From assembly GCA_022821965.1 (NCBI GenBank), contig JAJECN010000015.1:54785-118784 (forward strand): a stretch of 64,000 nt of DNA, read 5' to 3'. Position numbers and translations under genes: made by a program. How positions within the stretch are numbered: the first letter of the stretch is position 1; the number at the start of each line of letters is the position of its first letter. This DNA comes from Candidatus Poribacteria bacterium (GTDB lineage Bacteria > Poribacteria > WGA-4E > WGA-3G). The notes under the pieces are model-generated. The model saw nothing but the letters and a program-made list of their open reading frames with translations, was not told the origin of the DNA and ran no database searches. Shown here piece by piece: positions 5,532-61,927 of this stretch.

Positions 5532-5622
5532 TAACTGTAAAAGGTATTCCTGTCCGAATAAACGTTTACATTAGCGCAATTTACTACCCTAATGCATCAA
5601 TATTACAAAAGGGGAATTTATA

Positions 5623-6864: not shown

Positions 6865-6930
6865 CGACAACGCAACGTTGGGTTGGCTTTCAGTTTAATC
6901 CAATCTGCATTTTTATAAGGAGAATTTACG

Positions 6931-8265: not shown

Positions 8266-8321
8266 TATTTCTCGGACTCCAGTTTATTTGATGTCTCAAC
8301 ATTCAAAAAAGGAGAATCTAC

Positions 8322-9722: not shown

Positions 9723-9972
9723 TAGTTTGAATCTACAATTTTTCGTTTCGTGCTCACTTCTCCCCAGACAATTTTTTCCAATTAATTTGTCAGTCATTCC
9801 CACAAAGTCTACAGAGACATTCAGTTTTCCTGTGGCATTCAAAATATGTAGAACTGCCACAAGGTTCTCTTGCTAACGACCCATAACTGATAACTCCCGC
9901 GTGGAACGGGTTTCTTCGGGAAACACACAAGGAAAACACCCCGATCTCTCCCGCATAAGATGGAAATGGCTT

Positions 9973-10722: not shown

Positions 10723-10844
10723 AGTTAACAAGTGCACCCAAGTGAAGTGTGCCCTTTTTAAATCCAGACACCTGTAAACTGATTCATACCTTAGCTTGGA
10801 CGACATGCAGAGAAGATTCTACCCACATAAAGGGGAGGGTAACT

Positions 10845-20260: not shown

Positions 20261-20314
20261 CGACTAACTTTCAATGTGCGCTCACGGCAACTGCACAGAG
20301 GAGAAATTACTATA

Positions 20315-21289
20315 ATGGGCACGAATGTTATCGGTGTAGATATGGGTGGCACTAAGATTCTGTCTGCTGTCATTGACGCAGAAGGTAATATCTTAGGCAC
20401 AGCCAAAGTACCAACCAAAGCAGACAAAGGTCCATCCATTGTAATTGATCGGATCGCGGACAGTATCCAAAGGGCTATTGACAAATCAGGCGTTACCGCG
20501 GCATCAATTCAAGCTGTCGGAATTGGAGCACCGGGACCGCTTGATCCCGCTACAGGGATTGTTATTTTCGCACCCAACCTCCGTTGGAAGGATGTTCGAC
20601 TGAAAGAAGAGTTGGAGGCGCGCGTGGGCTTTCCGACATTCGTCGACAATGATGTGAACGTCGGGACGCTTGGTGAACACGTGTTCGGGGCAGGGAGAGG
20701 TTTTCAGAACGTCGTTGGGATTTTTGTGGGGACTGGTATTGGTGGCGGAATTATCCTGCAGGGTGAACTTTTCCACGGCGCAAGTAAGACGGCTGGTGAA
20801 ATCGGGCATATTATTGTCAAAGCAGGGGGACCGCGGTGTGGGTGTGGAACTCGTGGCTGCTTAGAAGCCATCGCGAGCCGTACTGCAATGACAAAACAGT
20901 TTCAGAAAGCGATTGTGAAAAAAAGGAAAAAAAGCGTGCTCTCTGAACTCACTGGTGGTGACTTGCGGGCGATTCGGAGTGGCGTATTGGCGAAGGCGAT
21001 TCGCGCAAATGATAAACTAACCTTGAAAGTTATCAAGAAGACGACGAAATACCTCGGCATCGGCATCGGTTCTATTGTGAATTTCTTAAATCCAGAGCTG
21101 ATTGTGTTGGGTGGTGGTGTCGTTGAAGCATTGGACAATACATTTTTGGACAGCATCCGAGCCGCTGCGAAAAAATACGCACTGCCCAACACATTGGACG
21201 GGGTCCAGATTGTACAGGCAGAACTGGGAGACAATGCTGGTATTCTTGGCGCAGCAGCACTTGCGCGACAGCGGTCGGGTGCAACGTAA
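20315..21289 (+). CDS. ROK-family glucokinase
   Basis: SD GAGGAGA precedes MGTNVIGVDMGGTKI. ROK signature GHIIV..GG..CGCGTRGCLE. Confidence 0.85.
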   Translation: MGTNVIGVDMGGTKILSAVIDAEGNILGTAKVPTKADKGPSIVIDRIADSIQRAIDKSGVTAASIQAVGIGAPGPLDPATGIVIFAPNLRWKDVRLKEELEARVGFPTFVDNDVNVGTLGEHVFGAGRGFQNVVGIFVGTGIGGGIILQGELFHGASKTAGEIGHIIVKAGGPRCGCGTRGCLEAIASRTAMTKQFQKAIVKKRKKSVLSELTGGDLRAIRSGVLAKAIRANDKLTLKVIKKTTKYLGIGIGSIVNFLNPELIVLGGGVVEALDNTFLDSIRAAAKKYALPNTLDGVQIVQAELGDNAGILGAAALARQRSGAT

Positions 21290-25350: not shown

Positions 25351-25395
25351 CCAGCCCAGTCCATTGGCTGGGCTTACACTCTTTTCACTCTTTTC
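25351..25395. terminator. putative bidirectional terminator between convergent genes
   Basis: GC-rich hairpin CCAGCC-N9-GGCTGG followed by a CTCTTTTCACTCTTTT tract. Confidence 0.35.
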
Positions 25396-26497
25396 AATGG
25401 CGTGCGGAAGCTGTTAACGATTTGCCTGTTTCTGGGTGAAACAGGTGCGCTTTATCCATGTTGAAGTTGACCGTGACTTGAGCGTTGTGTTGCGGCACAT
25501 TGATGAGATCCGATTGTGCGACGAAGTTGTTTTTTTCTGTCCGAAGGTATAAGAGCGCGTGATTTCCGAGGGGCTCAACCAGTTCCACCTGTGTTCCAAC
25601 TTGATTGTTCCCGTTTTCACCGACATGAATATCCTCTGGACGGATACCGAGTGTCACCGAATCCCCTGGAAGTTCGTTCAGAACTGATTGGAGTTGCGCA
25701 TTCAATTCCACTTTGAAATTTTCAAATTGGAGGGTTGGGGTACCACCGTTGTTCATAATCTCTGTCTCTATAAAGTTCATCGGCGGCGTGCCGATGAAGC
25801 CTCCGACGAATTGATTCGCAGGTTTGTGATAGAGCGTTCCGGGATCGGCAATCTGTTGGATTTTCCCTTCATTGAGCACCACGATCTGATCGCCCATCGT
25901 CATCGCTTCGACTTGGTCGTGCGTGACGTAGACGATGGTAGCATTGAGCCGATCGTGCAGCCGACTGATTTCCATCCGCATCTGCACACGTAGTTTCGCG
26001 TCGAGGTTACTCAAGGGTTCGTCGAATAGGAAAACCTTCGGGTGTCGAACGATTGCTCTGCCGACAGCGACGCGTTGACGTTCTCCACCAGAGAGATGCT
26101 TCGGTTTGCGGTTCAATAGATGTGAGATGCTCAGAATCTCCGCCGCCTCTTTAACACGTTCTTCAATCTCCGCTTTTGAATATTTGCGGAGTTTCAACCC
26201 AAACGCCATGTTCTTATACACCGTCATGTGTGGATAGAGGGCATAATTTTGGAAGACCATGGCGATATCCCTATCTTTAGGCGGGATGTCGTTAATGCGT
26301 TCCTCATCAATATAGATGTCCCCTTCCGTTATCTCTTCCAACCCGGCAATCATCCGCAAAATTGTCGATTTGCCGCAACCCGACGGACCGACGAGCACCG
26401 TAAACGACTCATCTGGAATCTGAAAATCCGCTTGTTCAACTGCGAGAACGTCACCGTCGTAAATTTTGGTGACATCTTTCAAGATAAGGTGTGCCAT
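25394..26497 (-). CDS. ABC transporter ATP-binding protein (MalK/UgpC-type sugar importer ATPase)
   Basis: Walker A GPSGCGKST, ABC signature LSGGERQRV, Walker B FLFDEP, and a C-terminal transport-associated domain. Start chosen at MAHLILKD. Confidence 0.85.
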   Translation of the reverse strand: MAHLILKDVTKIYDGDVLAVEQADFQIPDESFTVLVGPSGCGKSTILRMIAGLEEITEGDIYIDEERINDIPPKDRDIAMVFQNYALYPHMTVYKNMAFGLKLRKYSKAEIEERVKEAAEILSISHLLNRKPKHLSGGERQRVAVGRAIVRHPKVFLFDEPLSNLDAKLRVQMRMEISRLHDRLNATIVYVTHDQVEAMTMGDQIVVLNEGKIQQIADPGTLYHKPANQFVGGFIGTPPMNFIETEIMNNGGTPTLQFENFKVELNAQLQSVLNELPGDSVTLGIRPEDIHVGENGNNQVGTQVELVEPLGNHALLYLRTEKNNFVAQSDLINVPQHNAQVTVNFNMDKAHLFHPETGKSLTASARH

Positions 26498-26523
26498 AAT
26501 TTCTGCGTCAACGAGACGCTGCA

Positions 26524-26544
26524 AATAGGCGGGATTTCAAATCC
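26524..26544 (-). terminator. hairpin GGCGGGA-TTTCAAA-TCCCGCC between the TPR-thioredoxin gene and the ABC ATPase gene
   Basis: Perfect 7-bp GC stem. It sits downstream of the stop of the 26587-28860 gene on the minus strand. The following U-tract is weak. Confidence 0.3.
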
Positions 26545-44947: not shown

Positions 44948-45886
44948 TTACCATACCCATCCTCTTCGCTCCCGGTGACCGCATAGTACCTTCACTGTCT
45001 CATGTGCTTTTTTCTCTGCCGCAATATGCAAGGGGGTATGACCTTTATCATTCTCCGCACTGGTATCAGCCCCATTTTCTAACAACACCACCGCCGTTTC
45101 GTATGCATTGTGCTGCGCGGCAATGTGCAAAGGAGTGTCGCCTTTTTCGTCTTTTGTGTTAACATCAGCCCCGTTTTTTAACAACACCATCGCTACTTCA
45201 GAAGTATCATCCTCGGCAGTAATGTGCAAGGGGGTGTGACCTTTATCATTCTTCGCGTTGGCATCAGCACCACTTCTCAGTAGTGCCATCGCTGTCTCAT
45301 AAGCGTTACGCCACGCTGCCCAGTGCAGGAGGGTATAACCAGATTTATTCCTCGGATTGACTCCGGTTTTGTCTTCCAGTGATGACCCTTCCACCTCATA
45401 GACATTGCGCCACGCTGCCCAGTGCAGAGGTGTATCGCCATCTTCATTCTTCACGTTGACATCAGCCCCATTTTCTAACAACACTACCGCTGTCTCATGC
45501 GCATTGTTCCATGCGGTCCAATGTAAAGGCGTAAAATCCTTGTCGTTCTTAGCATTGGCATCGGCACCGTTTTCTAATAGCACCACTGCTGCTTCAGAAG
45601 CATTGTGCCATGCCGCCCAGTGCAAGGCTGGATACCCATATTTGTCCTTCGCGTTGACATCAGCCCCATTTTCTAATAACGCTGCTACTGCTTCAGAAGC
45701 ATTGTCTCGCGCTGCATCATGCAACGAAGTGTAGCCGAGTGTGACCACACGTGCAACTGATGAATTTGTCCCCGATCCTGAAGTCCTTCCTACGATCTTA
45801 TCACGCTCTTCAAGACGCGAATCGGGGGGTTTGTCAACTGTGGTTCCAGATTTCGACGTATCAGATACATCTTGTTGCTTACACAC
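44948..45886 (-). CDS. ankyrin-repeat protein
   Basis: About 8 ANK repeats (TPLHWAAWNNAHETAVVLLENGADVN). GTG start with SD AAGGAGG. Confidence 0.8.
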   Translation of the reverse strand: MCKQQDVSDTSKSGTTVDKPPDSRLEERDKIVGRTSGSGTNSSVARVVTLGYTSLHDAARDNASEAVAALLENGADVNAKDKYGYPALHWAAWHNASEAAVVLLENGADANAKNDKDFTPLHWTAWNNAHETAVVLLENGADVNVKNEDGDTPLHWAAWRNVYEVEGSSLEDKTGVNPRNKSGYTLLHWAAWRNAYETAMALLRSGADANAKNDKGHTPLHITAEDDTSEVAMVLLKNGADVNTKDEKGDTPLHIAAQHNAYETAVVLLENGADTSAENDKGHTPLHIAAEKKAHETVKVLCGHRERRGWVW

Positions 45887-47320: not shown

Positions 47321-48469
47321 TCAATTCACGAACTCACACCATGCAGCAGGAACGCCTACTGGCGCGCCAATTGGCGAAGCTTGGAGTTCTGAGGCATCTA
47401 TGTTCTCCAAACTATCGGTTAATATCGACAGATTGGTATGTGCCTCTGGTAGGTTTTCTGCTTCAATCGCCACTTTGAATTCTACAATTGCGGCATCACG
47501 TTTACCTTGTTGATAGTAGGCAATCCCCAGATTGTTGTGTGCTTCAGCCATCGCACCAGCTGTCCTATGCGCAGCAATAGCCTCTTCAACTTTGCCTTGA
47601 TGGGAGTGAATAATTCCGAGATTCGTGTTTGCCTCTGGGGAATCTGGGGCACTGTGGAGTGCGCCTTCTAAAAGTACCTTTGCTTCATCAAACCTATTTT
47701 GACAGATGTAGACAAAAGCGAGATTGATTTGCACTTCCACTGAATCCGGTGCTATATCGAGTGCTTCTTTGTGCAATGCTATTGCTTCATCATGTTTTCC
47801 CTGCCAACTATAGACCAGTCCAAGGTTTGTATGTGGCTCTTCACCACCGTCGTTATCAATTGAAGTCTTAAACACATCAATAGCACGCTCAAGTTTTCCT
47901 TGAAAAAGATAAACAAGTCCGAGGTTGTTGTGGGGTTCCGCGAGGGTGGGATCGGTTTCCAATGCCTTTTGGTAAAGTTCAATTGCCTCATCAAACCGTC
48001 CTTGCCAACTATAAATCAGTCCAAGATTCAGTTTCGCTTCTCCGCCATCACCGAGTCGAATCGCCTTTTCTGAGGCAGTTATAGCAGCGTCCAGTTTTCC
48101 TTGGGAGATGTAGACGAACCCTAAGTTTGTGTATGCTTCAGCAGAATCTGGGTTGCACTGAAGGGCTGTCTCCAGCGATTGAAGTGCTTCTTTAAGCTGT
48201 CCTTGCCACGCATAAGCGACACCGAGATTAATGTGAGGTGCTGAAAGATTTGGATCAAGGTGACGAGCTTTGAGATGTAAGATGATTGCTTCATCCAACT
48301 CGCCTTCCCAACAACGCAAAGCACCCAAATTGGTGTGTGGTGCTGCCAGATCGGGTGCAAGACGAATTGCTTTATTTAGGGCAACTTTTGCTTCCTCAAG
48401 CCTTCCATGATCGATATCGTCATACGCCTGACGATTTAGTTCTCGTGCACGCTCAATATGCTCAGTCAT
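47321..48469 (-). CDS. TPR-repeat protein
   Basis: About 10 TPR units (AxxNLG..Y..QGK..EAI). Start at MTEHIE, with SD AAGGAA. Confidence 0.75.
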   Translation of the reverse strand: MTEHIERARELNRQAYDDIDHGRLEEAKVALNKAIRLAPDLAAPHTNLGALRCWEGELDEAIILHLKARHLDPNLSAPHINLGVAYAWQGQLKEALQSLETALQCNPDSAEAYTNLGFVYISQGKLDAAITASEKAIRLGDGGEAKLNLGLIYSWQGRFDEAIELYQKALETDPTLAEPHNNLGLVYLFQGKLERAIDVFKTSIDNDGGEEPHTNLGLVYSWQGKHDEAIALHKEALDIAPDSVEVQINLAFVYICQNRFDEAKVLLEGALHSAPDSPEANTNLGIIHSHQGKVEEAIAAHRTAGAMAEAHNNLGIAYYQQGKRDAAIVEFKVAIEAENLPEAHTNLSILTDSLENIDASELQASPIGAPVGVPAAWCEFVN

Positions 48470-48553
48470 GCTGTTTTCCTTACAGCAACCATCTACAAAA
48501 TGAATGCAGCCAGTCATTCGGGTAACGCACCGGCTGCACTCAGTTTATCTTGT

Positions 48554-50264: not shown

Positions 50265-51263
50265 CTACTGTTCCGAATTTACCGCCTGAATCAAAGCGAT
50301 GATATATCCGAACTGGAACGCCCACGCTTGCCGCACCCGACCAGAAACACCCGGTGGTGATGGATCATCTGGATGCCCCGGTGCGTGGTCAGGCATCAAC
50401 ATGTAGGGATATTCTACATCTCGAAGGATCTGCGCAACTCTGTGCATGTCGAGGTGTCCCTCGTCGGGCCAGACCTCTTGGAAATTGTGCAATCCACCGC
50501 GAATGTTACGAAAGTGAATGTTAAAAAGTTTCTTGCGTTCGCCGAAATACTGGATAATCTCATAGAATTCAGTGCCGGGATCATCTAAACCCTCCGACAC
50601 AGTGCCGCAGCAAAAATTAAAGCCGTGATAGGGGCTATCCGCAATTTCAGCGTAACGTTTCAAGCCATCAAAGGCGGGATGATTCCAGCGTTCAACGCCC
50701 CTCAAGATAGGCGCGGGTGGATCGTTTGGATGACATGCCATCTGGACCTTGTTTTCTTCAGCAACAGGAATTACCCGTTCGAGAAAGTATGCGACCCGAT
50801 CAAACGCCTCTTCACGACTCACTTCACCTGCTTCTGAAAGTGTTTCGTTATCGTACTTGGAGAAATCGAAAGTGCTGTAGCTTGAGCCGCCGCGTCCGAA
50901 TGTACTCTCAGTTCGCTGATTTTGCAGGATGCAAAAATTATAGTTCAAACCTCGTAAGCCTGCCGCCGCAGCATTCTCGATCATTTTACAAACTGCCTCG
51001 ATATCCTTGTCGCGCTGCGGATCTTGAGCGAGCGTAATGCTCCGCGGCATTCCGATATGAATCATCTCAAGGCTCACACCAGCTTCCGCGGCTTCTTCCT
51101 TATGTCGAATTAGCGTTTCGGTTTCAGTGTCCTCGGGGGTGGTATCCATATGCGTTACACCGTGCCGAGCGAGGAATGCCAGCTCTTTCGGAGATGTCCC
51201 GATGCCTTGAACACCGACATGCATCGCTGCCTTTTCGCGTGGTTGCTTCTCAGGTCTATCCAT
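50265..51263 (-). CDS. uxuA: mannonate dehydratase
   Basis: VIPVAEENKVQMACHPNDPPAPIL matches E. coli UxuA [24 protein letters not shown]. ATG preceded by SD AAGGAG; the track ORF has a TTG extension. Confidence 0.8.
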   Translation of the reverse strand: MDRPEKQPREKAAMHVGVQGIGTSPKELAFLARHGVTHMDTTPEDTETETLIRHKEEAAEAGVSLEMIHIGMPRSITLAQDPQRDKDIEAVCKMIENAAAAGLRGLNYNFCILQNQRTESTFGRGGSSYSTFDFSKYDNETLSEAGEVSREEAFDRVAYFLERVIPVAEENKVQMACHPNDPPAPILRGVERWNHPAFDGLKRYAEIADSPYHGFNFCCGTVSEGLDDPGTEFYEIIQYFGERKKLFNIHFRNIRGGLHNFQEVWPDEGHLDMHRVAQILRDVEYPYMLMPDHAPGHPDDPSPPGVSGRVRQAWAFQFGYIIALIQAVNSEQ

Positions 51264-51448
51264 CGTTTCGTTCTCCTTTGACAATTGAATGTGCTGTCAA
51301 CTGTTCGGGCTTAAGATGGTATCTGAGCATTATAGCACACTTGAAAAATTTAAGTCAATTCAAAAACAGAAAATTTCTGGACATGTGATCGGCTTCATGC
51401 TATGCTAAAAGCCACAGAATTTCATAGCGATTACACAATAGAGGAGAA

Positions 51449-53008
51449 ATGATGGCTACAGAAGATTATACTTCGCGTGTACCGCATCATACGTTCGCAG
51501 ACACATTGGAAGAGCAGGAAGCACAGTTGGAAACGAATCCACTGATGCAGCGGCTCAACGCTTATCGGAAAACGTATGAAGGCGATCCGCACCGTCCGAT
51601 TTATCACTATATCAACCCTGAAGCGATGCTCAATGATCCGAACGGTCTCTGCTTTTGGCAGGGACGGTGGCATCTTTTTTATCAGGCGTATCCACCTGAA
51701 GATACGCGACAGCACTGGGGACACGCAATCAGTGATGATCTCATCCACTGGCGCGACCTGCCTTATGCAATTTATCCCAACCCCGAAAGATGCTGTTTCT
51801 CCGGTGCAACGCTTGTAGAAGAAGATCGCGTGATTGCGATGTACCACGGCACGGTTGTCGGTAACATGGTGGCGGTATCAAGCGATCCACTTCTCCTGAA
51901 TTGGGAGAAAGTCTCCGGTAAAGCGGTCATCCCATCACAACATGCGGATGGCACAACCCCGGTCTACCGCGTCTTTGACCCGTGTATCTGGAAGAAAGAC
52001 GGTATGTACTATTCACTGTCGGGCGGCACACTCCCGCACGGACCCGGTGGCAAACCGATTCGTGCCAATTTTTTGCTCCGTTCAGCAGACCTCGCAAACT
52101 GGGTCTACCTGCACCCCTTCGTTGAAGATGATATGTTCACGTTGGTCGGCGATGATGGCGCGTGTCCCTATTTTTGGCCCATTGGAGATCGACACATGCT
52201 CCTTTTCTTCAGCCACATGAGCGGTGGACAGTATTTGCTCGGTGATTATGACACTGAACGAGACAAGTTCGTCGTAACAGCAGGTGCGAAAAACAATTTC
52301 GGGGCGGCATCCCCTGCGGGTGTCCACGCACCCTCAGCAACACCTGATGGGAACGGCGGTCTCATTGTCATCTATAACATGAATCCAGCGAAGCCTACCA
52401 AGGGTTGGAACCAGATCATGACGCTGCCGCGTCGCTTAACACTCCTCTCCAGAGATGAAATCGGGATTGAGCCTGCGGGTGATATTGAATCGTTGCGATC
52501 CGAACATCGGCACGTCGATGCGATGACACTCCCCGCGAATGAGGAGATCGTACTGGAAGGCATAAATGGCAATGCGATGGAGCTTGAACTCGAAATTGAC
52601 ACGAAATCGGCACCGATGGTTGAACTGAATGTCCTCCGTTCACCGCAGAAAGAAGAGTTTACCCGTATTGCGTTCTTCAGGGAACGCGGTATGCGTAACC
52701 TGAATTCCGATGTTAACGTGCGCGATAGTCTGCTAACAATCGATTCATCCTATTCGTCGATTGCATCGGATGTTCTCTCACGTGCACCTGAAACCGGAGC
52801 GATCTCCATTGCACAAGACGAGACTCTCAAATTACGGGTGTTTGTTGACAAGAGTGTTGTAGAGGTGTTCGCGAACGGGAAGCAGTGCGTCGCGATGCGT
52901 GTCTATCCGGACAAAGAGGAAAGCGTCGGTGTATCGTTGCGTTCACAAGGACAAGCGTGTGAACTCAAATCTCTGGATGCTTGGCAGATGCATAACATCT
53001 ATGAATAG
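51449..53008 (+). CDS. GH32-family beta-fructofuranosidase-like protein, cytoplasmic, EC-motif Glu replaced by Ala
   Basis: Motifs MLNDPNGLCFWQGRWHLFYQ and FDPC. The ACPYF segment aligns to the ECPDF motif. Confidence 0.75.
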   Translation: MMATEDYTSRVPHHTFADTLEEQEAQLETNPLMQRLNAYRKTYEGDPHRPIYHYINPEAMLNDPNGLCFWQGRWHLFYQAYPPEDTRQHWGHAISDDLIHWRDLPYAIYPNPERCCFSGATLVEEDRVIAMYHGTVVGNMVAVSSDPLLLNWEKVSGKAVIPSQHADGTTPVYRVFDPCIWKKDGMYYSLSGGTLPHGPGGKPIRANFLLRSADLANWVYLHPFVEDDMFTLVGDDGACPYFWPIGDRHMLLFFSHMSGGQYLLGDYDTERDKFVVTAGAKNNFGAASPAGVHAPSATPDGNGGLIVIYNMNPAKPTKGWNQIMTLPRRLTLLSRDEIGIEPAGDIESLRSEHRHVDAMTLPANEEIVLEGINGNAMELELEIDTKSAPMVELNVLRSPQKEEFTRIAFFRERGMRNLNSDVNVRDSLLTIDSSYSSIASDVLSRAPETGAISIAQDETLKLRVFVDKSVVEVFANGKQCVAMRVYPDKEESVGVSLRSQGQACELKSLDAWQMHNIYE

Positions 53009-53185
53009 ACCTCAAGAGCCGGATGCATCAATAAAATACGCCGCGGATCTTTATAATGTCAAAGAGGTTACGCTCCACGGCACAGCAGACTTATCGTTCT
53101 GGGAGACGGTGCTGCACAAGGAAAACCTTTTTCCGTACCACGAAAGAGGTAAAGCAGTCCTCTCGCTCAGTGCGATAGAGGCAAA

Positions 53186-53698
53186 ATGGAGGGGTTCAGG
53201 TTTAAAGAGTTTGTTATGGCTGTTGGAACTTGCCTTGATGAAAATGGAATGAGTTTGGATGGATACTATCTGCCGCACGCATTTAATTCGTCCAAATTCT
53301 TAGTTTTCTCAGAGAGGGTGTTCTTTCGTACCCCATATTTTCACGGTAACATCCGACTCGAAAACAAACTCCCTGCTTCCATCAAGTTGCAGGATAAGAC
53401 AGAAGTGCTCCTCCACGCGAGAATGTCTATCCCGAGCACACCACCCATAGTTGAATATTTGGAATGGAAAGGCCCTATTTTTCTTCCAAATAACCGCGGT
53501 AAATTCTTCGCTATATTGGCAGGTGAAACCGAAATTTATCCATTTTCACCCGAAATAGATCAGTTTGAAATCAAACCGTCAGCGCGGCACCGAATTTTTC
53601 AGGAACTTATTGACAGCAATTTTGTTGGCAGCGTATGGGGTTTGAGAGGCAATTCTCGCCACGCAAGGTCGAAGACGAACAGGCGAGATTCTGAGTAA
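53186..53698 (+). CDS. hypothetical protein between the two GH32 genes
   Basis: 170-aa ORF with SD AGAGG and no recognised domain. Confidence 0.3.
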   Translation: MEGFRFKEFVMAVGTCLDENGMSLDGYYLPHAFNSSKFLVFSERVFFRTPYFHGNIRLENKLPASIKLQDKTEVLLHARMSIPSTPPIVEYLEWKGPIFLPNNRGKFFAILAGETEIYPFSPEIDQFEIKPSARHRIFQELIDSNFVGSVWGLRGNSRHARSKTNRRDSE

Positions 53699-53711
53699 GG
53701 GATGATCTGAT

Positions 53712-55334
53712 ATGGCAGATACATGGGAAAAACTCCAAGGTAAAACCTATCCTGATACGGAGGCGGAACAGTTCGCTGCCCTTGAAACGGATGAGACATT
53801 GCGCGACTACAAGAAACGGAGAGAGGCGTGGGCATCGGATCCTTACCGTCCCATCTATCATATATCTTCTCTCTACGGCATGGGCGATGCGAACGGACTT
53901 TGTGAATGGCAGGGTCGGTATCATCTGTTTTATCAATTTGGTCCCCCAGGTGTTGAGCGGGTTCATTGGGGACACTGCTATAGCGAAGACTTGGTGCATT
54001 GGCAAGATCTGCCCCCTGCGCTGTATCCTGATACCGAACTACACTGCTTCAGCGGTCAGTGTCTCGTGGAAGATGAGCGGGTTGTTGCGCTCTATCACGG
54101 TAAAATGTCGGGGAATAGCATTGCGACTGCGAGCGATCCGCTCCTGCTCAATTGGGAAAAGCATCCGAATAATCCTGTCATACCGAATGTCGAGACCAAT
54201 GAATACGAGCAGCCTTATAACGTCTTTGATCCATGTATCTGGAAAGAAGAAGATGGGTATTATTCAATCTCTGGTACATCAGCCAACGGCTGGATTCGAG
54301 AGCGGCGTAGATCTGCCTCACACCTCTTTTATTCAAAAGACCTGACATACTGGGAGTATCTCCATCCGCTGCTGATTGACGATGTTTTTTGTGATCTCGG
54401 TGAAGATGGGGCGGTGCCGAATTTCTTGCCTATTGGAAACGGTAAGCATATCCTACTTCTTTTCAGCCACAAACGTTCAGCGCGCTACTACATCGGCGAA
54501 TACGACCGCGGGAACCACAAATTTACGCCTGAATATCACGGCAGGATCAACCACGGCACTTTCGGGGGTGGGATGGTTTCCTGTCCCTCCGCAACGGTGG
54601 ATACAAGAGGTCGCCTCATCGCTATCTTAAACTGCTCGGACGGAAGGCAGAACGAGCAAGCCGCGTCCGGATTGTGTATGACTCTCCCGTGGCACCTCAC
54701 GCTGAAAGCGGACAACGCGCTGGCAGTAGAACCCGTTGAGGAGGTAAAAAGTCTGCGAAATACGCATACCCGCCTCACGGACATCGCTTTATCAGCCAAT
54801 GAGGAATTTATACTTGATGCGGTAAAAGGCAAAGCAATTGAGATTGACCTGACCTTAGAGATAGGAACTGCGCGGGAGGCCGGATTATATGTATTCCGAT
54901 CACCAAACGGGAATGAACGGACAAAAATCTCTATCTATAACCATAGACACGGCAAAACCAATGATAGCCTACAGATTGACACGTCCTATTCCTCTTTGCG
55001 TACAGACCTTGTCGGTAAACCTCCTGAGACTGCACCGTTCCGCTTGAGCAGTGACGGTAGAGTCCGACTCCGTATCTTCCTTGATCGTAGTCTCATTGAG
55101 GTCTTCGCCGATAACGGAGAATGCTTTCCAGAATGGGCGTTTCCGAGAAAGGGTATTGACAAACTCTTCCCGCTATTCTCGCGACAGTGTGCTGTTGCAC
55201 GCGCCTATCCGCTGCAAGAGGAGAGCAACGGCATTTCGCTTTTCGCCATCGGTGGCGAGGCGAAGGTTGTTTCGATGGATGTGTGGCAGATGCGCTCCAT
55301 CTGGCAAGAGTTGAAGTATCGTGAAGGGGAGTAA
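53712..55334 (+). CDS. GH32-family paralog, cytoplasmic, with divergent catalytic motifs (GDANG; AVPNF in place of ECPDF)
   Basis: Motifs MGDANGLCEWQGRYHLFYQ and VFDPCIW; 540 aa. Confidence 0.7.
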   Translation: MADTWEKLQGKTYPDTEAEQFAALETDETLRDYKKRREAWASDPYRPIYHISSLYGMGDANGLCEWQGRYHLFYQFGPPGVERVHWGHCYSEDLVHWQDLPPALYPDTELHCFSGQCLVEDERVVALYHGKMSGNSIATASDPLLLNWEKHPNNPVIPNVETNEYEQPYNVFDPCIWKEEDGYYSISGTSANGWIRERRRSASHLFYSKDLTYWEYLHPLLIDDVFCDLGEDGAVPNFLPIGNGKHILLLFSHKRSARYYIGEYDRGNHKFTPEYHGRINHGTFGGGMVSCPSATVDTRGRLIAILNCSDGRQNEQAASGLCMTLPWHLTLKADNALAVEPVEEVKSLRNTHTRLTDIALSANEEFILDAVKGKAIEIDLTLEIGTAREAGLYVFRSPNGNERTKISIYNHRHGKTNDSLQIDTSYSSLRTDLVGKPPETAPFRLSSDGRVRLRIFLDRSLIEVFADNGECFPEWAFPRKGIDKLFPLFSRQCAVARAYPLQEESNGISLFAIGGEAKVVSMDVWQMRSIWQELKYREGE

Positions 55335-55484: not shown

Positions 55485-55790
55485 GTGTCAGTTACAGCAA
55501 AAGAATGGGTCTTTAATACCGTCGAAAAATTATCCGCTTCTGAGATCGAAGAATTGAAGCGTTACTTGGAATACCTCGTTTGGAAATCGGAAATCCCAAC
55601 AGGAAGTTTAGGAAACTCTCAAGATTCGTCCAAACTTAAACGAAAAGGCCAACCCAAGCGGATCTTATCAGCTATTAACAAATCGCATGATATGACACCA
55701 GAAGACGCGGAAGCATTGCTAAACGCAATTAAAGAAGGAGAAATCCCAATGCGTTTTGATTCTGTCTTCGACGAGTCGGAAGGTGAATAG
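55485..55790 (+). CDS. putative antitoxin of VapBC pair
   Basis: 101-aa ORF with SD AAGGAGG and a GTG start. Its stop abuts the PIN-toxin start. Confidence 0.5.
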   Translation: MSVTAKEWVFNTVEKLSASEIEELKRYLEYLVWKSEIPTGSLGNSQDSSKLKRKGQPKRILSAINKSHDMTPEDAEALLNAIKEGEIPMRFDSVFDESEGE

Positions 55791-55793
55791 TTG

Positions 55794-56210
55794 ATGGACT
55801 ATCTCTTGGATACCTCTACGTGCAGCTTCCTAATGGCACGTGTCCCTTATGTTACTGGTCACTTCGATTCTCTGTCCGACCTCAATGACTACCTCTTTAC
55901 CTGTACGATTGTTAGAGGCGAAATCCTTTTCGGGATTCAGAAACTTCCGATAGGTCGCAGGCGGCAAGTTTTGGAGAATCAAGCAATTAATCTGTTTGAA
56001 GAATTGCCCTGTTTAGCAATCCCGAAGCAGGCTGCTGATTACTATGCCCCAATGAAGAATTACGCCGAACAACAGGGAACCCCATTGTCGGAGAACGACC
56101 TTTGGATAGCCTCTACTGCTGTGGCTCTTGACGCAATTCTCGTCACTACTGACTCAGACTTCCAAAGGATTGCTGAATTCGGATTAAAACTTGAAGATTG
56201 GACAAATTGA
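55794..56210 (+). CDS. vapC: PIN-domain ribonuclease toxin VapC
   Basis: Acidic PIN residues LLDTS...E...D...TTDSDF. 138 aa. Confidence 0.75.
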   Translation: MDYLLDTSTCSFLMARVPYVTGHFDSLSDLNDYLFTCTIVRGEILFGIQKLPIGRRRQVLENQAINLFEELPCLAIPKQAADYYAPMKNYAEQQGTPLSENDLWIASTAVALDAILVTTDSDFQRIAEFGLKLEDWTN

Positions 56211-56311: not shown

Positions 56312-57538
56312 ATGTTTTATCTAACTGTTATTTTCACAGTCTATATCCTATTCTTTTCAATCCAATTGGCTGCAACAGCGCAAAGCGTCAACATCTCTGA
56401 ACCTACCCCTCTACCGGCTGCTGTCCGCAAAACTTTTAACTTAGACCCGTTTTACGAGCAATGGATTGATGTGGAAGGATTGCCTGTTGTCGCATCATCG
56501 AAGGTGGATCCTTATGCTATGAAAGAAGCGGCATGGCTCATTCGGCGGATGATTGGGTATCGTCGGGATGTGTTGCAGGCACTCGCTGAAAATAACGTGC
56601 GTTTTGCTGTGATGGCACATAACGAACTGACAACCCAAATCCCCGAACACAGCGATCTGCAACCCGACTATTATTGGGATCGACGTGCACGCGGTTTGGG
56701 TTCCACGCCAGCGAGACCAGCAGTAAGTTGCGGTGAGGAAAATCTGCTTAACTATTCAGGTGACCCTTATTCCACTGAGAACATTCTGGTACACGAATTC
56801 GCGCATGCGATCCACCAGATGGGGTTGAATACGGTGGATCCCAGTTTTGATAACCGCCTTAAAACACTATATGATGCTGCAGTCGAAAAAGGATTGTGGA
56901 AAGATACCTACGCGATTACAAACCGAGCAGAGTACTGGGCTGAAGGCACACAATCCTGGTTCGATACAAACCGAGCAAACGATGACCAACATAACCATGT
57001 TGATACCCGCGACAAGTTGAAAGAATACGACCCCGCACTCGCGGAACTGTTGACAGAAGTCTTTGGCGATGCGGACTGGCGATACACGCAGGCAATAACC
57101 CGTACGCATCTCGTACATCTCCAAGGGTTCAGTCCTGAAGGATCTCCAGGGTTTGAATGGCCCGCCGAGTTGATAGAATTGACAGAGTTTCACCAACAGT
57201 TAAAGAACCCAGACAGCGATGGTAATGACAAGTGGATAGACTTGAAGGCGCATGATCCAAGTTTGCTTCCAAATCTAAGATCTGGAGACGACGACACGGA
57301 GACCGCAATCCTCTTCGTGAACGGCACAAAAACTGAGATCGCCTACTATTGGGTGGATTATGAAGGTAGTGAGAAATTCTACGGCAAAATTGCTCCAGAT
57401 GCCTTCGTCAATCAACACACATACATAGGGCATATCTGGGTGGTTAAGGGCACAAATGAAGGAAACCTTGCTGTGTTCCGTGCTGAAGAAAAGACTGGAC
57501 GGGCATTTATTGATTTGGAGTTGCTGAATGGTCAATAA
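56312..57538 (+). CDS. secreted zinc metalloprotease-like protein (HEFAHAIH) with C-terminal beta-sandwich domain
   Basis: Signal peptide. HExxH motif LVHEFAHAIHQMG followed by a downstream AEYWAEG. Confidence 0.5.
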   Translation: MFYLTVIFTVYILFFSIQLAATAQSVNISEPTPLPAAVRKTFNLDPFYEQWIDVEGLPVVASSKVDPYAMKEAAWLIRRMIGYRRDVLQALAENNVRFAVMAHNELTTQIPEHSDLQPDYYWDRRARGLGSTPARPAVSCGEENLLNYSGDPYSTENILVHEFAHAIHQMGLNTVDPSFDNRLKTLYDAAVEKGLWKDTYAITNRAEYWAEGTQSWFDTNRANDDQHNHVDTRDKLKEYDPALAELLTEVFGDADWRYTQAITRTHLVHLQGFSPEGSPGFEWPAELIELTEFHQQLKNPDSDGNDKWIDLKAHDPSLLPNLRSGDDDTETAILFVNGTKTEIAYYWVDYEGSEKFYGKIAPDAFVNQHTYIGHIWVVKGTNEGNLAVFRAEEKTGRAFIDLELLNGQ

Positions 57539-57607: not shown

Positions 57608-60600
57608 ATGGCAACAGATTATAAAAAGATAGCTGAAGAGCACGAAAAACGATACGGGTGGGATGTAAAGCCTCGTCGTATCTACAAACGGCTTTACAAC
57701 GACAAGACACATTTCGTCTATGAGCTCATTCAGAATGCTGATGATAACGAAAGCCTAAACCTCGAACTGCAGCTAGACAAAAATGAGTTGTTTGTTTGGA
57801 ACGATGGATATCAGTTTAGCGAAGAAGATGTGCGCAACATCTGTTCGCTAGGTTCAAGTAATAAGGATTTGACACAAATTGGTACTTTCGGCATCGGTTT
57901 CAAAGCGGTTTACAACTATACGGATTTTCCGGAAATTTACTCTGGTGCTGAACGTTTTCTTATCCGAGATCTCATCAAACCAGAAAGTATCGCTGAAATG
58001 GATTTTGCGGTTGCAAAACAAGTAGGTAACGGCAAAACAGTCTTTCATTTGCCTTTCAAAGATGGCCTGCGTCAAGAAGATATTGAACGATTGAAAAATC
58101 GACTTCTCAATTTAAACAAGCGAGCTTTACTATTTCTACGTCATCTCGAAATGGTTCACTGGCGTGATGCGCGCGACGCACAGGAAGGTTCTTATTCCTG
58201 TCACCGCCAACCTCATAGTAAAATTCAGAATGCCTCCGAGGTCAAGTTAACTGTGTCGTTGAACGGTGATAATCAACCTTCGGAGACATTCCTCGTTTTT
58301 CGCAAGGAAGTTCAGCCACCACAAGATGTAATTAATCAGTTGTTGCAACAAGAAGAAGATGACGAAGATCGACACCGTATTAAGCGGTCCGCCGAAAAGT
58401 TACAACCTGTTGAAGTTGCATTCAAAGTACAGGATGGTGGAGTAACACCAATAGACGATTGTGTGTTGTTTGCTTATCTTCCAACCCAGAAAGAAACTCA
58501 TCTGCGATTTCTCATTCAGGCGCGCTATCAAACAACGCCTGCCCGTGATAATATTTCAAATGATAATCCATGGAACAAATGGTTAGTGCAAGAAACAGCC
58601 AACTTTCTTCCGGATGTATTGGAACAATTGAAAGCAGGTGGTTTGCTTACTCCTACGTTTTTTAATGTAATGCCTTTGAGAGATGACAATGTACCTGTAG
58701 AGTATGGACCTATCTCCGAGTCATTGGGCAGAGCGATGCGAGATCGGTCGTTCGTTCCTACGCAAAACGGAGGGTATGCAAAAGCAGAACATGTGCTCTA
58801 TCCCCATGCCGAATCTCTGCGGCAATTAATTAAAAGCGATTGGATGCATCCGAATAATTGGTTACATCCTGAGATACGAAATACGAAAGAGTTTCGTCGA
58901 TGTTTTAGGGCTATATGTGAAGCAGGTGTAGAAATAGCGTCTACCGGTCGTGTTTTGCGCTGGCTTGAAAGGAAGACTCCATCCTGGCTTGAAGGCAGAT
59001 GTAGCGAATGGCTATGTTCTTTGTACGTCTATTTGAATAGTCAGAAATCCGAATTGAAGCGAATAAAGAAGCTGCCGTTGGTTCGGCTTGAAAGTGGGAA
59101 GCATGTATGTGCAGACAATCAGTCAGTATTTTTCCCACCAGATCAAGCCGAAGTGCGCGAAGATATGGTTTCTTTCTTCATGGAATTGCCTATTCTTCAA
59201 TCCTCTCTGCTTGCGGGGAACACACGCAACGTCATTGAAACTTTCTTAAAAAGTCTAGGGGTTAGGATGTTGCACCCTGAAGATTTGATTCGTGAATCAA
59301 TTTGTCCCAGGTACCTTCAAACCGAGAAACCTACCGAAGCACAAAACCGTGCGCATGTGCGCTACCTTCGGCATTTTTTATCAAAGGCTTCAAAAGCAGC
59401 GCGTAGCAGTTTGAGTAAAGAAATTAGTAAGATCCCAATTCTGTCGGTTTACAGAGGAAATCAACGAAAACCTCTTGACTTCCTAGAACCTTGCAACGCC
59501 TATCTCTCTCAAGCTTATACAAGTGATACTAGTTTAGAAACCTACTTTTCTGAATGCGGCAACGTTTGGTACGTAGATGATAATTATATAGAAAATGATT
59601 CCGATCGAAAAAAATGGCTCCAGTTTTTTAAATCAATTGATGTTATGGAAACACCACGAGTTATTGAAGAAAACTTAACTATCAGTTCCCAAAACCGTCA
59701 AGAACTTGACAAACGCGGACTTGAGTGGAAAAATAGTAAGAAAGGGTTAATCATTGAAGATCGTCACTTCGATGGTCTGCCGGAAGTGTTGGCTCGAGTT
59801 AGCAATCATAAGGAAATGGATCTTGCACAAGTTCTTTGGCATCTATTAGTTAAAGCACTTCCATCAGGAGAATCGCAACGAGATGCTCTCTTTCAAGGCA
59901 TTTATCGCTGGGGCACTTATAGTTCTCAATTTGAATCCTTTCAGGCTATGTTTTATCGCCAACTGCAGAAGGCAGCATGGCTTCCTGACGAACAAGAGAA
60001 CTTTCGTGTTCCTGCTGAATGTTTCGCACCCACTTCTGAAAACCGTAAGGTTTTAGGGGATAGTGTAGCGTACCTGCACCCAGATTTTGATATTAGTCAA
60101 GACAGCGAAGCTGCACGATGGCTAGCTAGAAAATTGGGGGTACATTTGGACGCAAATATGGATAGTGTACTCAATTACCTTCAAGCCCTGAGCCGCACCG
60201 GAGTGAGTGTTGAACAGGTTAAACCACTCTATTGCTTTCTTGCACAACAAAATTCGTGTCGGAGCGAAGAATTCAAGCAAAAACCGCTTATCTTCACTTC
60301 CAATCCAGAAACAAATTGGTGGAAACTAGATAAAGTATTCTGGGAAGATGAAAATCCAGTTTTCGGTAATCATCGTGGTTACCTTAGAGAGAGTTACGCT
60401 GATAATGAAGCAATACTAAAGCCGTTTTTTATCGCTTTGGGAGTCTCGGAACGCGCTGCACCTTTAGACTATGTCCGTGTTATCCGAGAGGTCACGTCTG
60501 TGGAGCTAGCTGACGACGCAACAGTACGTGAGCGTGTTAAGATTCTTTACGGTCGCTTATGGCAGTCTCTGCAGGAAAGCGGTAACTTGCTAAACAGTGA

Positions 60601-61927
60601 AGAATGGGAAAAAGAGTGGGAACAAACACGCGATGGCAAATGCTGGCTTGGCAAGAATGGAAGCAAATGGGATTTTTACCCTCGGTACGAATTGGTTTGG
60701 AACGATCATCCTCATGTTGCTGGGGTTTTTGAAGGTGAGGTTCCATTTTGGAAATTCGACGGTAGTTTATTAGACCTTGCTAAGCATCTGGAAGTCGAAT
60801 GTTGCTCTCGAGCCGTGATAGAAGTCCAGCCTTGTGGTGTCCAAGAAGAGGATAAGGATTGGTCAGCGAGGGTCCGAGATCTGCGTCCATATATTCATGC
60901 CTTTCTCAATTCACCGAGTTTGTGTGAGTTACAAGAAGATAAATCTGCCCATATTTTAGATTTTTTGTCGGTTCGCTTGGTCGAGAAGTTAGAAACGGCG
61001 TATACATTGAAAAAAGTTTCCTTGATTGATCCAAACGCACCTCAGAGTTTTTTAGATGTGACCGACCAGAAAGTAGTACTCTGGTTGGCATTGGAGGCAG
61101 GTGTAAGTGAATATGCAGAGCTGATCGGTGATGCTTTACAGGGATACTTTGATGTTAGAGATCTAGGGAGATTTGCCGAAGATTTGCTGACAAAAAAACG
61201 AGATCGTGTGCTTTCCCGCTGGCAACAAAAGGGTCTCGAAATAGATATTTGCCTAATGCCAGAAACGGATACTAAAAAAGGTGAAGGAAAACAACCGATA
61301 CCTATTAATGAGGAACTTCCAGCTCAATCTAATGATGAAGATGCTAATTTGGTAAAGGATGAATCTGATACGGGAATCCTAGTAGTCGATGAGATTTCTG
61401 AGCACAGCAGTGGAATGATTAATTCGAGAACAGACGAATCTGGACACCATGAATATACTCCGCGTTCCAGTGGTACAAGTTGGTCGGGTGGGCATTCAAT
61501 AAGTACGTCTAGTGGAAAAAGTAAGGGCAAAGGCCATAGTGGTCACTATGGAAGTGAGGAAAGCGATGAACATCGAGAATTAAAGGAATACCTAGCAGCG
61601 AAAACCTTTGAACTTGGTATCGGATTGAAACTCGTTGAGGTTGAGTATACATTCGGGTCAGGCGATAGAGTGGATATTTTGCTGAAGGATGATTTTGGGA
61701 ATCCTGTAACTGTAGAAGTGGAAATAGGTTTTTCATCCAAAGCCGGAAGATACATCGGGATTTGGCAAGCCATAAAGTATCAGCATCTTGCGGCTGTGGA
61801 ATATGGTTTGCCGTGTGAACAGGTACGTAGTATTCTTGCAGCGCCAGAAATTCCTGAAGACATTAAAAAGAAATGTAAGGAATTGGGAATTGAACCCATT
61901 GAGGTTTCTAATCAGACGAAAGCATAG
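57608..61927 (+). CDS. 1439-aa sacsin/NOV-like GHKL (HATPase_c) ATPase with DUF3883/PD-(D/E)xK-like C-terminal domain
   Basis: N-terminal Bergerat N-box ELIQNADDN and G-box GTFGIGFKAVY. Low-complexity S/G/H/K linker. C-terminal GDRVDILLKD...VTVEVEIG beta-strand motif. Confidence 0.65.
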   Translation: MATDYKKIAEEHEKRYGWDVKPRRIYKRLYNDKTHFVYELIQNADDNESLNLELQLDKNELFVWNDGYQFSEEDVRNICSLGSSNKDLTQIGTFGIGFKAVYNYTDFPEIYSGAERFLIRDLIKPESIAEMDFAVAKQVGNGKTVFHLPFKDGLRQEDIERLKNRLLNLNKRALLFLRHLEMVHWRDARDAQEGSYSCHRQPHSKIQNASEVKLTVSLNGDNQPSETFLVFRKEVQPPQDVINQLLQQEEDDEDRHRIKRSAEKLQPVEVAFKVQDGGVTPIDDCVLFAYLPTQKETHLRFLIQARYQTTPARDNISNDNPWNKWLVQETANFLPDVLEQLKAGGLLTPTFFNVMPLRDDNVPVEYGPISESLGRAMRDRSFVPTQNGGYAKAEHVLYPHAESLRQLIKSDWMHPNNWLHPEIRNTKEFRRCFRAICEAGVEIASTGRVLRWLERKTPSWLEGRCSEWLCSLYVYLNSQKSELKRIKKLPLVRLESGKHVCADNQSVFFPPDQAEVREDMVSFFMELPILQSSLLAGNTRNVIETFLKSLGVRMLHPEDLIRESICPRYLQTEKPTEAQNRAHVRYLRHFLSKASKAARSSLSKEISKIPILSVYRGNQRKPLDFLEPCNAYLSQAYTSDTSLETYFSECGNVWYVDDNYIENDSDRKKWLQFFKSIDVMETPRVIEENLTISSQNRQELDKRGLEWKNSKKGLIIEDRHFDGLPEVLARVSNHKEMDLAQVLWHLLVKALPSGESQRDALFQGIYRWGTYSSQFESFQAMFYRQLQKAAWLPDEQENFRVPAECFAPTSENRKVLGDSVAYLHPDFDISQDSEAARWLARKLGVHLDANMDSVLNYLQALSRTGVSVEQVKPLYCFLAQQNSCRSEEFKQKPLIFTSNPETNWWKLDKVFWEDENPVFGNHRGYLRESYADNEAILKPFFIALGVSERAAPLDYVRVIREVTSVELADDATVRERVKILYGRLWQSLQESGNLLNSEEWEKEWEQTRDGKCWLGKNGSKWDFYPRYELVWNDHPHVAGVFEGEVPFWKFDGSLLDLAKHLEVECCSRAVIEVQPCGVQEEDKDWSARVRDLRPYIHAFLNSPSLCELQEDKSAHILDFLSVRLVEKLETAYTLKKVSLIDPNAPQSFLDVTDQKVVLWLALEAGVSEYAELIGDALQGYFDVRDLGRFAEDLLTKKRDRVLSRWQQKGLEIDICLMPETDTKKGEGKQPIPINEELPAQSNDEDANLVKDESDTGILVVDEISEHSSGMINSRTDESGHHEYTPRSSGTSWSGGHSISTSSGKSKGKGHSGHYGSEESDEHRELKEYLAAKTFELGIGLKLVEVEYTFGSGDRVDILLKDDFGNPVTVEVEIGFSSKAGRYIGIWQAIKYQHLAAVEYGLPCEQVRSILAAPEIPEDIKKKCKELGIEPIEVSNQTKA

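Follow-up and report, generated by a model that had tools for sequence, protein, structure and literature searches.

Can a glycoside hydrolase that has lost its catalytic acid/base residue still be an enzyme, and if so, by what means? We asked this of two neighboring genes of glycoside hydrolase family 32 (GH32) in a 64,000-nucleotide stretch of Candidatus Poribacteria DNA (contig JAJECN010000015.1, positions 54,785 to 118,784), here called the window, whose own numbering is used for all coordinates below. GH32 is among the best-studied glycosidase families, and its Asp/Asp/Glu triad and the Arg of its RDP motif are treated as universal. The two open reading frames (ORFs), both on the plus strand, encode GH32A (ORF A; 51449..53008, 519 amino acids) and GH32B (ORF B; 53712..55334, 540 amino acids). 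A reading made from the sequence alone, hereafter the sequence-only reading, had described them as cytoplasmic GH32 paralogs with Ala in place of the catalytic Glu. It had proposed that they might be binding or regulatory proteins, enzymes using another residue (transferring or phosphorolytic ones among them), or members of a divergent subfamily of clan GH-J.

Two GH32 proteins with a replaced acid/base module

The proteins of the window are 97 to 98% identical to those on several Poribacteria contigs from metagenome-assembled genomes (e.g., PYJC01000130). Both ORFs contain the motifs that had been quoted for them, and both matched the Pfam models Glyco_hydro_32N (GH32A, 130.4 bits, E = 1e-37; GH32B, 124.6 bits, E = 8e-36) and Glyco_hydro_32C (84.7 bits, E = 9e-24; 88.7 bits, E = 5e-25) against cut-offs of ~22 bits, so their assignment to GH32 stands. 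The same scan matched no other GH-J family, gave no hit to the GH68 model at E <= 0.01, and found no fused DNA-binding, signaling, or transport domain. The AlphaFold2 (AF2) model of GH32A, the protein chosen for modeling (predicted local distance difference test [pLDDT], 94.1; predicted template modeling score, 0.93), has an N-terminal two-helix extension, a five-bladed beta-propeller, and a C-terminal beta-sandwich. All of its top 50 Foldseek neighbors in the PDB were GH32 structures (template modeling [TM] score, 0.69 to 0.78), and none belonged to GH68. Together, the Pfam results and the fold neighbors rule out a better fit to GH68, GH43, or another propeller family; the lone match to a different propeller, GH32B against an arabinanase model, was marginal (19 bits). 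The structures that share this two-domain fold include the intracellular bacterial GH32 enzymes of Frischella perrara (7VCO), Thermotoga maritima (1UYP and 1W2T), and Bifidobacterium (3PIG and 6NUM), which are also the best PDB sequence matches of both proteins, yet at 21 to 24% identity.

GH32A and GH32B are 40% identical to each other. Their cytoplasmic location, as the sequence-only reading had it, is plausible because neither has a hydrophobic stretch at its N terminus (maximum Kyte-Doolittle 15-residue mean, -0.58 and -0.17, respectively) or room for an upstream start. Some homologs have a signal-peptide-like N terminus or a LamG-like N-terminal extension. GH32B also carries a 22-residue insertion in its C-terminal beta-sandwich (residues 468 to 489, 55113..55178; NGECFPEWAFPRKGIDKLFPLF) that is missing from GH32A. 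Judged by length, B-type proteins of <=54% identity to it (~519 to 521 amino acids) lack this insertion as well, and the closer relatives of GH32B (540 to 552 amino acids) appear to keep it.

Both catalytic aspartates are retained. The nucleophile is Asp63 in GH32A (motif LNDPNG; 51635..51637, plus strand, as are all the residues located below) and Asp59 in GH32B (53886..53888), each aligned with D17 of T. maritima invertase (1uyp); in GH32B the surrounding motif is the variant MGDANG, as had been reported. The transition-state Asp is D177 in GH32A and D173 in GH32B, and the N-terminal FYQ block reads WHLFYQ and YHLFYQ. At the acid/base position, GH32A has Ala238, the last residue of Asp235-Asp236-Gly237-Ala238 (52151..52162; DDGACPYF), and GH32B has Ala234, the last residue of Glu231-Asp232-Gly233-Ala234 (54402..54413; GEDGAVPNF), with an Asp two residues earlier in each case. 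The Arg of RDP is Phe in both proteins (motif VFDP; Phe176-Asp177, 51974..51979, and Phe172-Asp173, 54225..54230).

These assignments agreed between methods. Single-sequence phmmer alignments to 7vco, 1uyp, and 1w2t paired the acid/base Glu with Ala and the RDP Arg with Phe, and a 98-sequence profile of the clade described below aligned to 7vco, 6num, and 2ac1 in the identical register. Against 2qqv, the engineered E203A mutant (WACPDFF), the same profile matched residue for residue, with G-A-[VC]-P of the clade on W-A-C-P of the mutant. No alignment places a Glu in the acid/base column of either protein, and the change from Glu to Ala that had been read from ACPYF and AVPNF is confirmed.

The sequence-only reading had overlooked two further changes. 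The RDP Arg, described as "completely conserved in clan GH-J," adjoins the acid/base Glu and is its probable proton relay, and the Tyr of the YASK motif is another neighbor of the same Glu (PMC3360783). This Tyr position (YASK/YAPQ) is occupied by His293 in GH32A (52325..52327) and by Ser in GH32B; His is found there in 45 of 88 clade members, and Tyr in 3 of the 5 Glu-retaining neighbors of the clade. Going by these alignments, the whole canonical acid/base module is replaced, with Ala for Glu, Phe for the RDP Arg, and His or Ser for the YASK Tyr. The two proteins still have in common with the intracellular bacterial enzymes the nucleophile and transition-state Asp, the Gln of FYQ, the Trp of WGH, the Ser of FSG, and the missing signal peptide, but besides the replaced module they have lost the Trp of WMNDPNG, and a D-D-G loop and an SH motif are specific to their clade.

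An obvious objection is that these are ordinary beta-fructofuranosidases and that the missing Glu reflects an error of alignment, sequencing, or assembly. The loop before the ECP strand does vary in length, and in the profile alignment it is two residues longer in the clade than in 7vco. Nevertheless, the C/V-P pair anchors the register in every alignment, residues 227 to 245 of GH32A include Asp but no Glu, and the innermost strand of blade IV (residues 238 to 245) begins at A238 in the AF2 model, which excludes a shift that would hide a Glu or Asp in the acid/base column. Ala occupied this position in 240 of 240 close homologs from many independent assemblies, ruling out a pseudogene or sequencing error, and the Arg and Tyr partners are replaced too. 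Moreover, both proteins fell short of all curated subfamily cut-offs, and by far in the case of sucrose-6-phosphate hydrolase (TIGR01322; 158.5 bits for GH32A and 148.3 for GH32B versus 356.4) and BfrA (NF041092; 117.1 and 118.7 bits versus 900). We regard this objection as effectively refuted.

A large glutamate-less clade within GH32

The 240 homologs just mentioned were listed as 120 for each protein. Those of GH32A, 73 to 94% identical to it and spread across Poribacteria, Latescibacterota, and Planctomycetota, all read ACPYF, and 117 of them read FDP. Those of GH32B all read G[ED]DxA[VC]PN[FYL] or a close variant, in every case with Ala; GDANG is restricted to the nearest relatives of GH32B, the wider B-type group having MNDPNG. 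A broader search with one sequence per 50%-identity cluster returned 726 representatives at E <= 1e-30. Among the best 150 of these (33 to 71% identity, short fragments ignored), ~90 were full length and without the Glu, and the acid/base position held Ala in 62, Ser in 21, Gly in 3, Met in 3, and Val in 1. Peptide patterns specific to the clade were found at 595 loci or more in species-representative genomes of Poribacteria, Latescibacterota, Planctomycetota, SAR202, and others; the best 80 of these loci came from Poribacteria, Latescibacterota, and Phycisphaerae.

In a quick neighbor-joining tree of 96 sequences, built without support values, five Glu-retaining sequences formed a basal grade, and all Glu-less sequences formed one nested clade. 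GH32A fell within an ACPYF subclade and GH32B within an AVPNF subclade. Because these subclades are separate, the tree presents the two genes as anciently diverged members set in tandem, with no recent duplication; they are paralogs in the sense of two related GH32 genes side by side and not in the sense of recent copies. By the same sequence comparisons, the clade is a large and old one within GH32 and is under strong purifying selection. The proposal of a divergent GH-J subfamily thus holds insofar as there is one large, conserved, Glu-less clade, and fails insofar as this clade sits within GH32, no other GH-J family having scored.

We counted residue conservation in 88 Glu-less representatives, and because these had been selected on His256 (GH32A numbering, used throughout), that residue was scored in other sets. 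Position 63 was Asp in all 83 members without a gap there, and position 177 was Asp in all 88; W90, H92, S118, and G119 were essentially invariant. Position 176 was Phe, Tyr, or Trp in 66 of 88 and never Arg (F/Y/W/G/I across the clade). Two residues, N62 (58%) and Q79 (76%), differed between subclades, and GH32A keeps most of the fructosyl-binding residues (N62, Q79, W90, S118, and D177). In some sub-subclades (P0255, P0261, P0268, and a group reading PFDPNG/SWDP/SCPDFF), the acid/base residue is Met or Ser, and Ala or Trp stands in for the Arg, Phe for the Asn of NDPNG, and Ile for the Gln of FYQ, often together with N-terminal extensions of 240 to 490 residues. This further divergence of the -1 subsite suggests that several specificities exist within the clade.

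Public annotation calls the clade proteins "glycoside hydrolase family 32 protein" or "beta-fructofuranosidase." We found no description of a Glu-less GH32 clade in the full-text literature, the coverage of which excludes subscription-only papers, and no characterized or solved member in the PDB, where the best match was the canonical 7vco (125 bits with a single sequence, 219 bits with the profile). What is new is a rewired center in a classical family, with the Glu and the "completely conserved" Arg both lost throughout a huge clade, and not a new type of system.

Two signature residues, Asp236 and His256

What occupies the space around the lost Glu? Asp236, two residues before Ala238, was present in 82 of the 88 Glu-less representatives (93%), and residue 235 was acidic in 80 of them. 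The second signature is the clade-specific SH motif, Ser255-His256 in GH32A (52211..52216) and Ser252-His253 in GH32B (54465..54470). His256 occurred in 79 of 80 members of an independently chosen set and in 88 of 90 Glu-less full-length representatives. Many members have Lys or Arg at positions 257 to 258, with the B-type reading S-H-K-R (A2 consensus, FSHKR). At the position aligned with His256, 7vco has Gln and 1uyp has Ile. Against Arabidopsis cell-wall invertase (AtcwINV1), the clade profile places S255 on D239, H256 on D240, and residue 258 on K242; D239 of that enzyme has been a target of mutation and of work on sucrose complexes (PDB 2qqu title; PMC3360783).

The five Glu-retaining neighbors suggest when these residues arose. 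None has Asp at the position two before the Glu, which holds Met (MWEC/MWEM), Val (P0235), or a gap (P0256), and Asp236 is found solely in the nested Glu-less clade, where it co-occurs with the absence of the Glu. All five already read FDP, and P0256 and P0235, which are nearest to the clade, already carry His256. From this distribution on the rough tree, the likely order of change was replacement of the Arg by an aromatic residue, then gain of His256, and then loss of the Glu together with gain of Asp236 and the two-residue lengthening of the loop. In the AF2 model of GH32A, D235 to G237 make up the loop that leads into the active-site funnel just ahead of the innermost strand of blade IV, and the adjacent strand, the second of the blade, ends with S255-H256. 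Taken with the alignments, this arrangement would have D236 and H256 both face the leaving-group side of the scissile bond, D236 as a candidate relocated carboxylate and H256 as a candidate general acid/base or anion binder.

A possible relocated acid/base

We tentatively favor the reading that GH32A and GH32B are active retaining glycosidases or transglycosidases of the GH32 fold in which the acid/base role has moved to D236, His256, or both. In such an enzyme, D63 would attack the anomeric carbon to give a covalent glycosyl-enzyme with retention, and D177 would stabilize the transition state. The relocated carboxylate D236, in the loop before the old Glu position, would protonate the leaving group and activate the water or acceptor, with His256 either working together with it in an Asp/His arrangement or taking over its role. 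Since signal peptides are missing, the two Poribacteria proteins would act in the cytoplasm on small imported glycosides.

Other families offer precedents for His, alone or with Asp, as an acid/base. GH3 NagZ uses an Asp-His dyad as its acid catalyst, and in GH117, a five-bladed propeller family of marine polysaccharide degraders, His is the proposed general acid. Both nevertheless differ in family and mechanism from the case considered here, GH117 being inverting. Of the roles that the sequence-only reading had suggested, that of an enzyme using another residue is the one favored by the near-invariant Asp236 and His256 and the invariant nucleophile and transition-state Asp; a phosphorolytic activity found no direct support.

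Several points weigh against this reading. The proximity of D236 and H256 to the glycosidic oxygen is taken from secondary structure and sequence alignment alone, the neighbor-joining tree was quickly made, and no assayed clade member turned up in the literature searched. His256 coexists with the Glu in the basal P0256 and P0235, and because it was already present beside the Glu there, it may be a substrate-binding residue instead of a catalyst. Five clade members have neither Asp nor Glu at position 236 (Ala in three and Ser in two), although in some of them an Asp occurs one or two residues earlier, and in a sixth member position 236 is Glu. P0143 (GASAACPYF; Ser at 236, Gln at 256) is the sole full-length member with neither signature residue; it is perhaps a genuine pseudo-enzyme, or else it hints that the clade can do without D236 and H256.

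That last case leads to the second possibility, namely, that all of these are noncatalytic sugar-binding or regulatory proteins that hold fructosides or related sugars without turning them over, like the engineered E203A invertase. The natural proteins carry the same change from Glu to Ala at the aligned position (WACPDFF in 2qqv, crystallized with sucrose, versus GACPYFW), GH32B has in addition altered NDPNG to GDANG, and in many contexts pathway genes are missing, so that the gene looks like an orphan. Plants, too, have invertase-like GH32 proteins that are catalytically defective. The engineered acid/base mutants (E203A, 2QQV, and E203Q, 2OXB, of Arabidopsis; 1W2T of T. maritima; E201Q of chicory fructan 1-exohydrolase, 2AEZ) are otherwise canonical proteins crystallized with substrate, however, whereas the natural clade has coevolved, compensating changes (D236, H256, and an aromatic residue for the Arg) and a long history of purifying selection. 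The nucleophile and transition-state Asp are invariant over 33 to 70% sequence divergence, for which there is little reason in a protein that only binds, and this invariance argues for an enzyme. The newly gained D236 and H256 are near-invariant, no DNA-binding, signaling, or transport domain is fused, and the many subclades with different subsite residues resemble enzymes of differing specificity; some members are secreted or LamG-fused, as glycan-degrading enzymes often are. This conservation pattern makes a purely binding or regulatory role, which the sequence-only reading had listed first, improbable in our view.

Gene context and the nature of the substrate

If these proteins are enzymes, on what would they act? 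In the window, the neighborhood of the GH32 pair includes a GH95 fucosidase, a sulfatase, and two LamG proteins and holds no fructokinase, sucrose or fructan transporter, or regulator. Elsewhere in the window, the only genes with a possible link to fructan or sucrose encode a ROK-family protein (20276..21289) and a MalK-like ABC ATPase (25394..26524), 25 to 30 kb away. Because the pocket near the scissile bond is remodeled and fructan and sucrose genes are missing nearby, these proteins probably act on something other than sucrose or an ordinary fructan.

Divergent from GH32A lies the gene that the sequence-only reading had called uxuA (50265..51284, minus strand). It does adjoin GH32A and encodes a UxuA-like/xylose-isomerase-like TIM-barrel protein (PF03786, 138.6 bits, and AP_endonuc_2), but the PF03786 match covers profile positions 167 to 336 of 352, the C-terminal half, and the protein fails the NCBIfam cut-offs for mannonate dehydratase (TIGR00695, 70.5 versus 199.55 bits; NF003027, 101.3 versus 191 bits).

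Between the two GH32 genes had been noted an ORF of 170 codons (53186..53698) for which no function was proposed. That ORF exists, but it is the 3' part of a frameshifted gene (53001..53698, plus strand) that when intact encodes a protein of ~232 amino acids. Compared with three relatives, one base is missing in or next to a run of G near 53191 (AAATGGAG-GGGTTC), which splits the gene; the frameshift could be real or a homopolymer error. The ATG at 53001 overlaps the stop codon of GH32A (ATGAATAG), and the overlap suggests translational coupling. The family comprises 127 proteins, typically of 228 to 234 amino acids, all of whose source names are Poribacteria "hypothetical protein," and it has no sequence-level match in Pfam, NCBIfam, or the PDB, even by profile search. 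The AF2 model of an intact homolog (P0391; pLDDT, 91.6) had the acetoacetate decarboxylase (ADC) superfamily as all 18 of its top Foldseek matches in the PDB (5upb, 3bgt, 4jmd, and 4zbt among them; probability, 1.00; TM score, 0.53 to 0.64). The fold is thus shared with ADC, MppR, Swit_4259, and the Sbi00515 aldolase-dehydratase, although sequence similarity to them is not detectable, the family is restricted to Poribacteria, and the copy in the window is frameshifted. Enzymes of this superfamily form a Lys Schiff base on keto acids, and in the Poribacteria family K62, K168, and K225 are invariant or near-invariant; a profile search that would have placed the catalytic Lys gave no hits.

We clustered 1,398 neighboring ORFs from 82 loci and sampled six further contexts. 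The order found in the window, with the UxuA-like gene divergent and followed by GH32A, the ADC-fold gene, and GH32B, is that of close Poribacteria. The UxuA-like gene was syntenic in 24 of the 82 loci, and the ADC-fold gene was present in 17. GH32B followed GH32A in 24 loci, 16 from close Poribacteria (89 to 93% identity to GH32B) and 8 from a second Poribacteria lineage that has neither the UxuA-like nor the ADC-fold gene. One group of Latescibacterota has a galactonate dehydratase, a GH29 fucosidase, an unknown gene, a sulfatase, and then GH32A; the galactonate dehydratase passed the equivalog cut-off (335 versus 311 bits) there and in the second Poribacteria group. In another Latescibacterota group, GH32A adjoins an RraA-like aldolase, with PhyH-like dioxygenases, an SDR, and a DUF6785/DUF6784 membrane protein around it. 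In Phycisphaerae, a sulfatase follows GH32A. Among the additional contexts, L084 had an HpcH/HpaI aldolase two genes upstream, and L086 had a UxuA-like gene (31% identical) directly upstream of an A-type gene. Three B-type contexts had no carbohydrate theme.

These comparisons gave no conserved operon that would name the substrate; they showed synteny within lineages and, more loosely, sulfatases, fucosidases, and sugar-acid or keto-acid enzymes that recur as neighbors. The recurrence is suggestive, but it is a raw tally of families that abound in these genomes. A transporter, fructokinase, or regulator was not a recurrent neighbor in the 82 loci and six contexts, and nothing in them supports fructan use.

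It is here that a third reading has to be weighed, that no protein residue serves as general acid because the substrate needs none or supplies its own. Substrates of this kind would be ketosides with an anomeric carboxylate (2-ulosonic or 2-keto-3-deoxy acids such as Kdo, Kdn, and DHA, or pyruvate ketals) or glycosides with a good anionic leaving group such as phosphate or sulfate. Loss of the Glu would make room and avoid repelling the substrate anion, His256 (with the Lys/Arg of SHKR in the B-type) would bind that anion, and the aromatic residue in place of the Arg would pack on a deoxy position. The active site is in part as this would have it, the negative Glu being gone, His present, Lys or Arg following it in many members, and Phe, Tyr, or Trp standing for the Arg. 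Sugar-acid and keto-acid enzymes recur by clade members in several independent lineages, with galactonate dehydratase and RraA-like and HpcH/HpaI aldolases among them, UxuA-like genes are near clade members in Poribacteria and in L086, a BNR/sialidase-like gene is a neighbor in L087, the ADC-fold gene overlaps the GH32A stop codon, and sulfatases are directly adjacent in Phycisphaerae and Latescibacterota. A natural precedent is GH1 myrosinase, a retaining glycosidase with its nucleophile intact but without the acid/base carboxylate, for which it makes up by means of a good leaving group and an external base, although it is a (beta/alpha)8 barrel with Gln for Glu and a known substrate, a sulfated thioglucoside.

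Against this, the genomes of Poribacteria, Latescibacterota, and Planctomycetota are very rich in these same gene families, so that adjacency, without a background rate, may be chance, and there are the three B-type contexts without a carbohydrate theme. The near-invariant acidic pair D235/D236 would repel an anionic substrate, and the change from Arg to Phe takes away a positive charge, which is odd for an anion-binding site. Ulosonic-acid glycosides are known mostly as pyranosides, whereas GH32 binds a furanoside, and GH32A retains most of its fructosyl-binding residues. We therefore judge catalysis without a protein acid to be rather unlikely, if worth keeping in mind.

A bolder form of this proposal, and a quite speculative one to which we give little credence, is that the clade is a new class of ketosidases cleaving glycosides with an anomeric carboxylate, such as 2-keto-3-deoxy acids, 2-ulosonic acids, or the pyruvate ketals of sulfated fucose-rich glycans of sponges and algae. 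The carboxylate of the substrate, placed by His256, would stand in for the lost Glu, which would make the acid/base catalysis substrate-assisted, and the linked enzymes (UxuA-like, galactonate dehydratase, aldolase, and ADC-fold) would then handle the freed keto acid. The remaining probability goes to explanations other than those set out here.

Two further observations concern the surroundings of clade members. At L087 (2..4234; JGI 3300041086, Planctomycetota), a BNR/sialidase-like gene is followed by a secreted Glu-less GH32 (P0069, with a signal peptide) and then by a Glu-retaining GH32 that reads WINDPNG, WDG, and WELP, a natural pairing of both types of active site. A large DUF6785/DUF6784 membrane protein is encoded in the window at 14855..16798 (minus strand) and at 1895..3820 of L001. 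Its homologs lie two or three genes from an A-type GH32 in Latescibacterota (L075 to L082), and in another Poribacteria genome the distance is ~6 kb. The proximity may be coincidental, or the protein may be a transporter that goes with the clade.

Other features of the window

Directly downstream of GH32B are two abutting ORFs of 101 and 139 amino acids (55485..55790 and 55791..56210, plus strand), a putative toxin-antitoxin pair of which the second looks PIN/VapC-like by eye. They are followed at 56312..57538 (plus strand) by a protein of 408 amino acids with a signal-peptide-like N terminus, an HExxH zinc-metalloprotease-like region (weak ATLF and M90 matches), and a C-terminal match to the VHL beta-domain (E = 8e-7), which is unusual in a bacterium; this protein was found in 28 of the 82 related loci. 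The next ORF (57608..61927, plus strand) encodes 1,439 amino acids and occurs in 10 related loci at ~53% identity.

Between the GH95/sulfatase genes and the LamG genes are an ankyrin-repeat protein (44948..45886, minus strand) and a tetratricopeptide repeat protein (47321..48517, minus strand), their repeats recognized by eye; both are typical of the eukaryote-like repeat proteins of sponge symbionts. At the start of the window (473..11642, plus strand) is a tandem array of eight paralogous ORFs, six with a CarboxypepD_reg-like and a C-type lectin domain and the last two with the CarboxypepD_reg-like domain only. The array ORF at 1984..4026 is fused to the N terminus of an extracytoplasmic function sigma factor. 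C-type lectin domains are unusual in bacteria, and the array may be a eukaryote-like family of a sponge symbiont.

Implications for GH32 and its annotation

Annotation calls every GH32 member a "beta-fructofuranosidase," and this is taken to mean use of fructan or sucrose. For the Glu-less clade, such annotations are probably wrong or at least unproven, and so is what has been concluded from them about the ecology of sponge symbionts and of marine bacteria of the Planctomycetes-Verrucomicrobia-Chlamydiae and Fibrobacteres-Chlorobi-Bacteroidetes groups. The loss of the Glu and the Arg across so large a clade should surprise a CAZy specialist, and it concerns enzymologists and CAZy curators alike. 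GH32 would hold a second solution to catalysis, whether an Asp/His pair that has been relocated or assistance by the substrate, and a new substrate specificity may await in this family, possibly tied to sulfated fucose-rich or acidic glycans.

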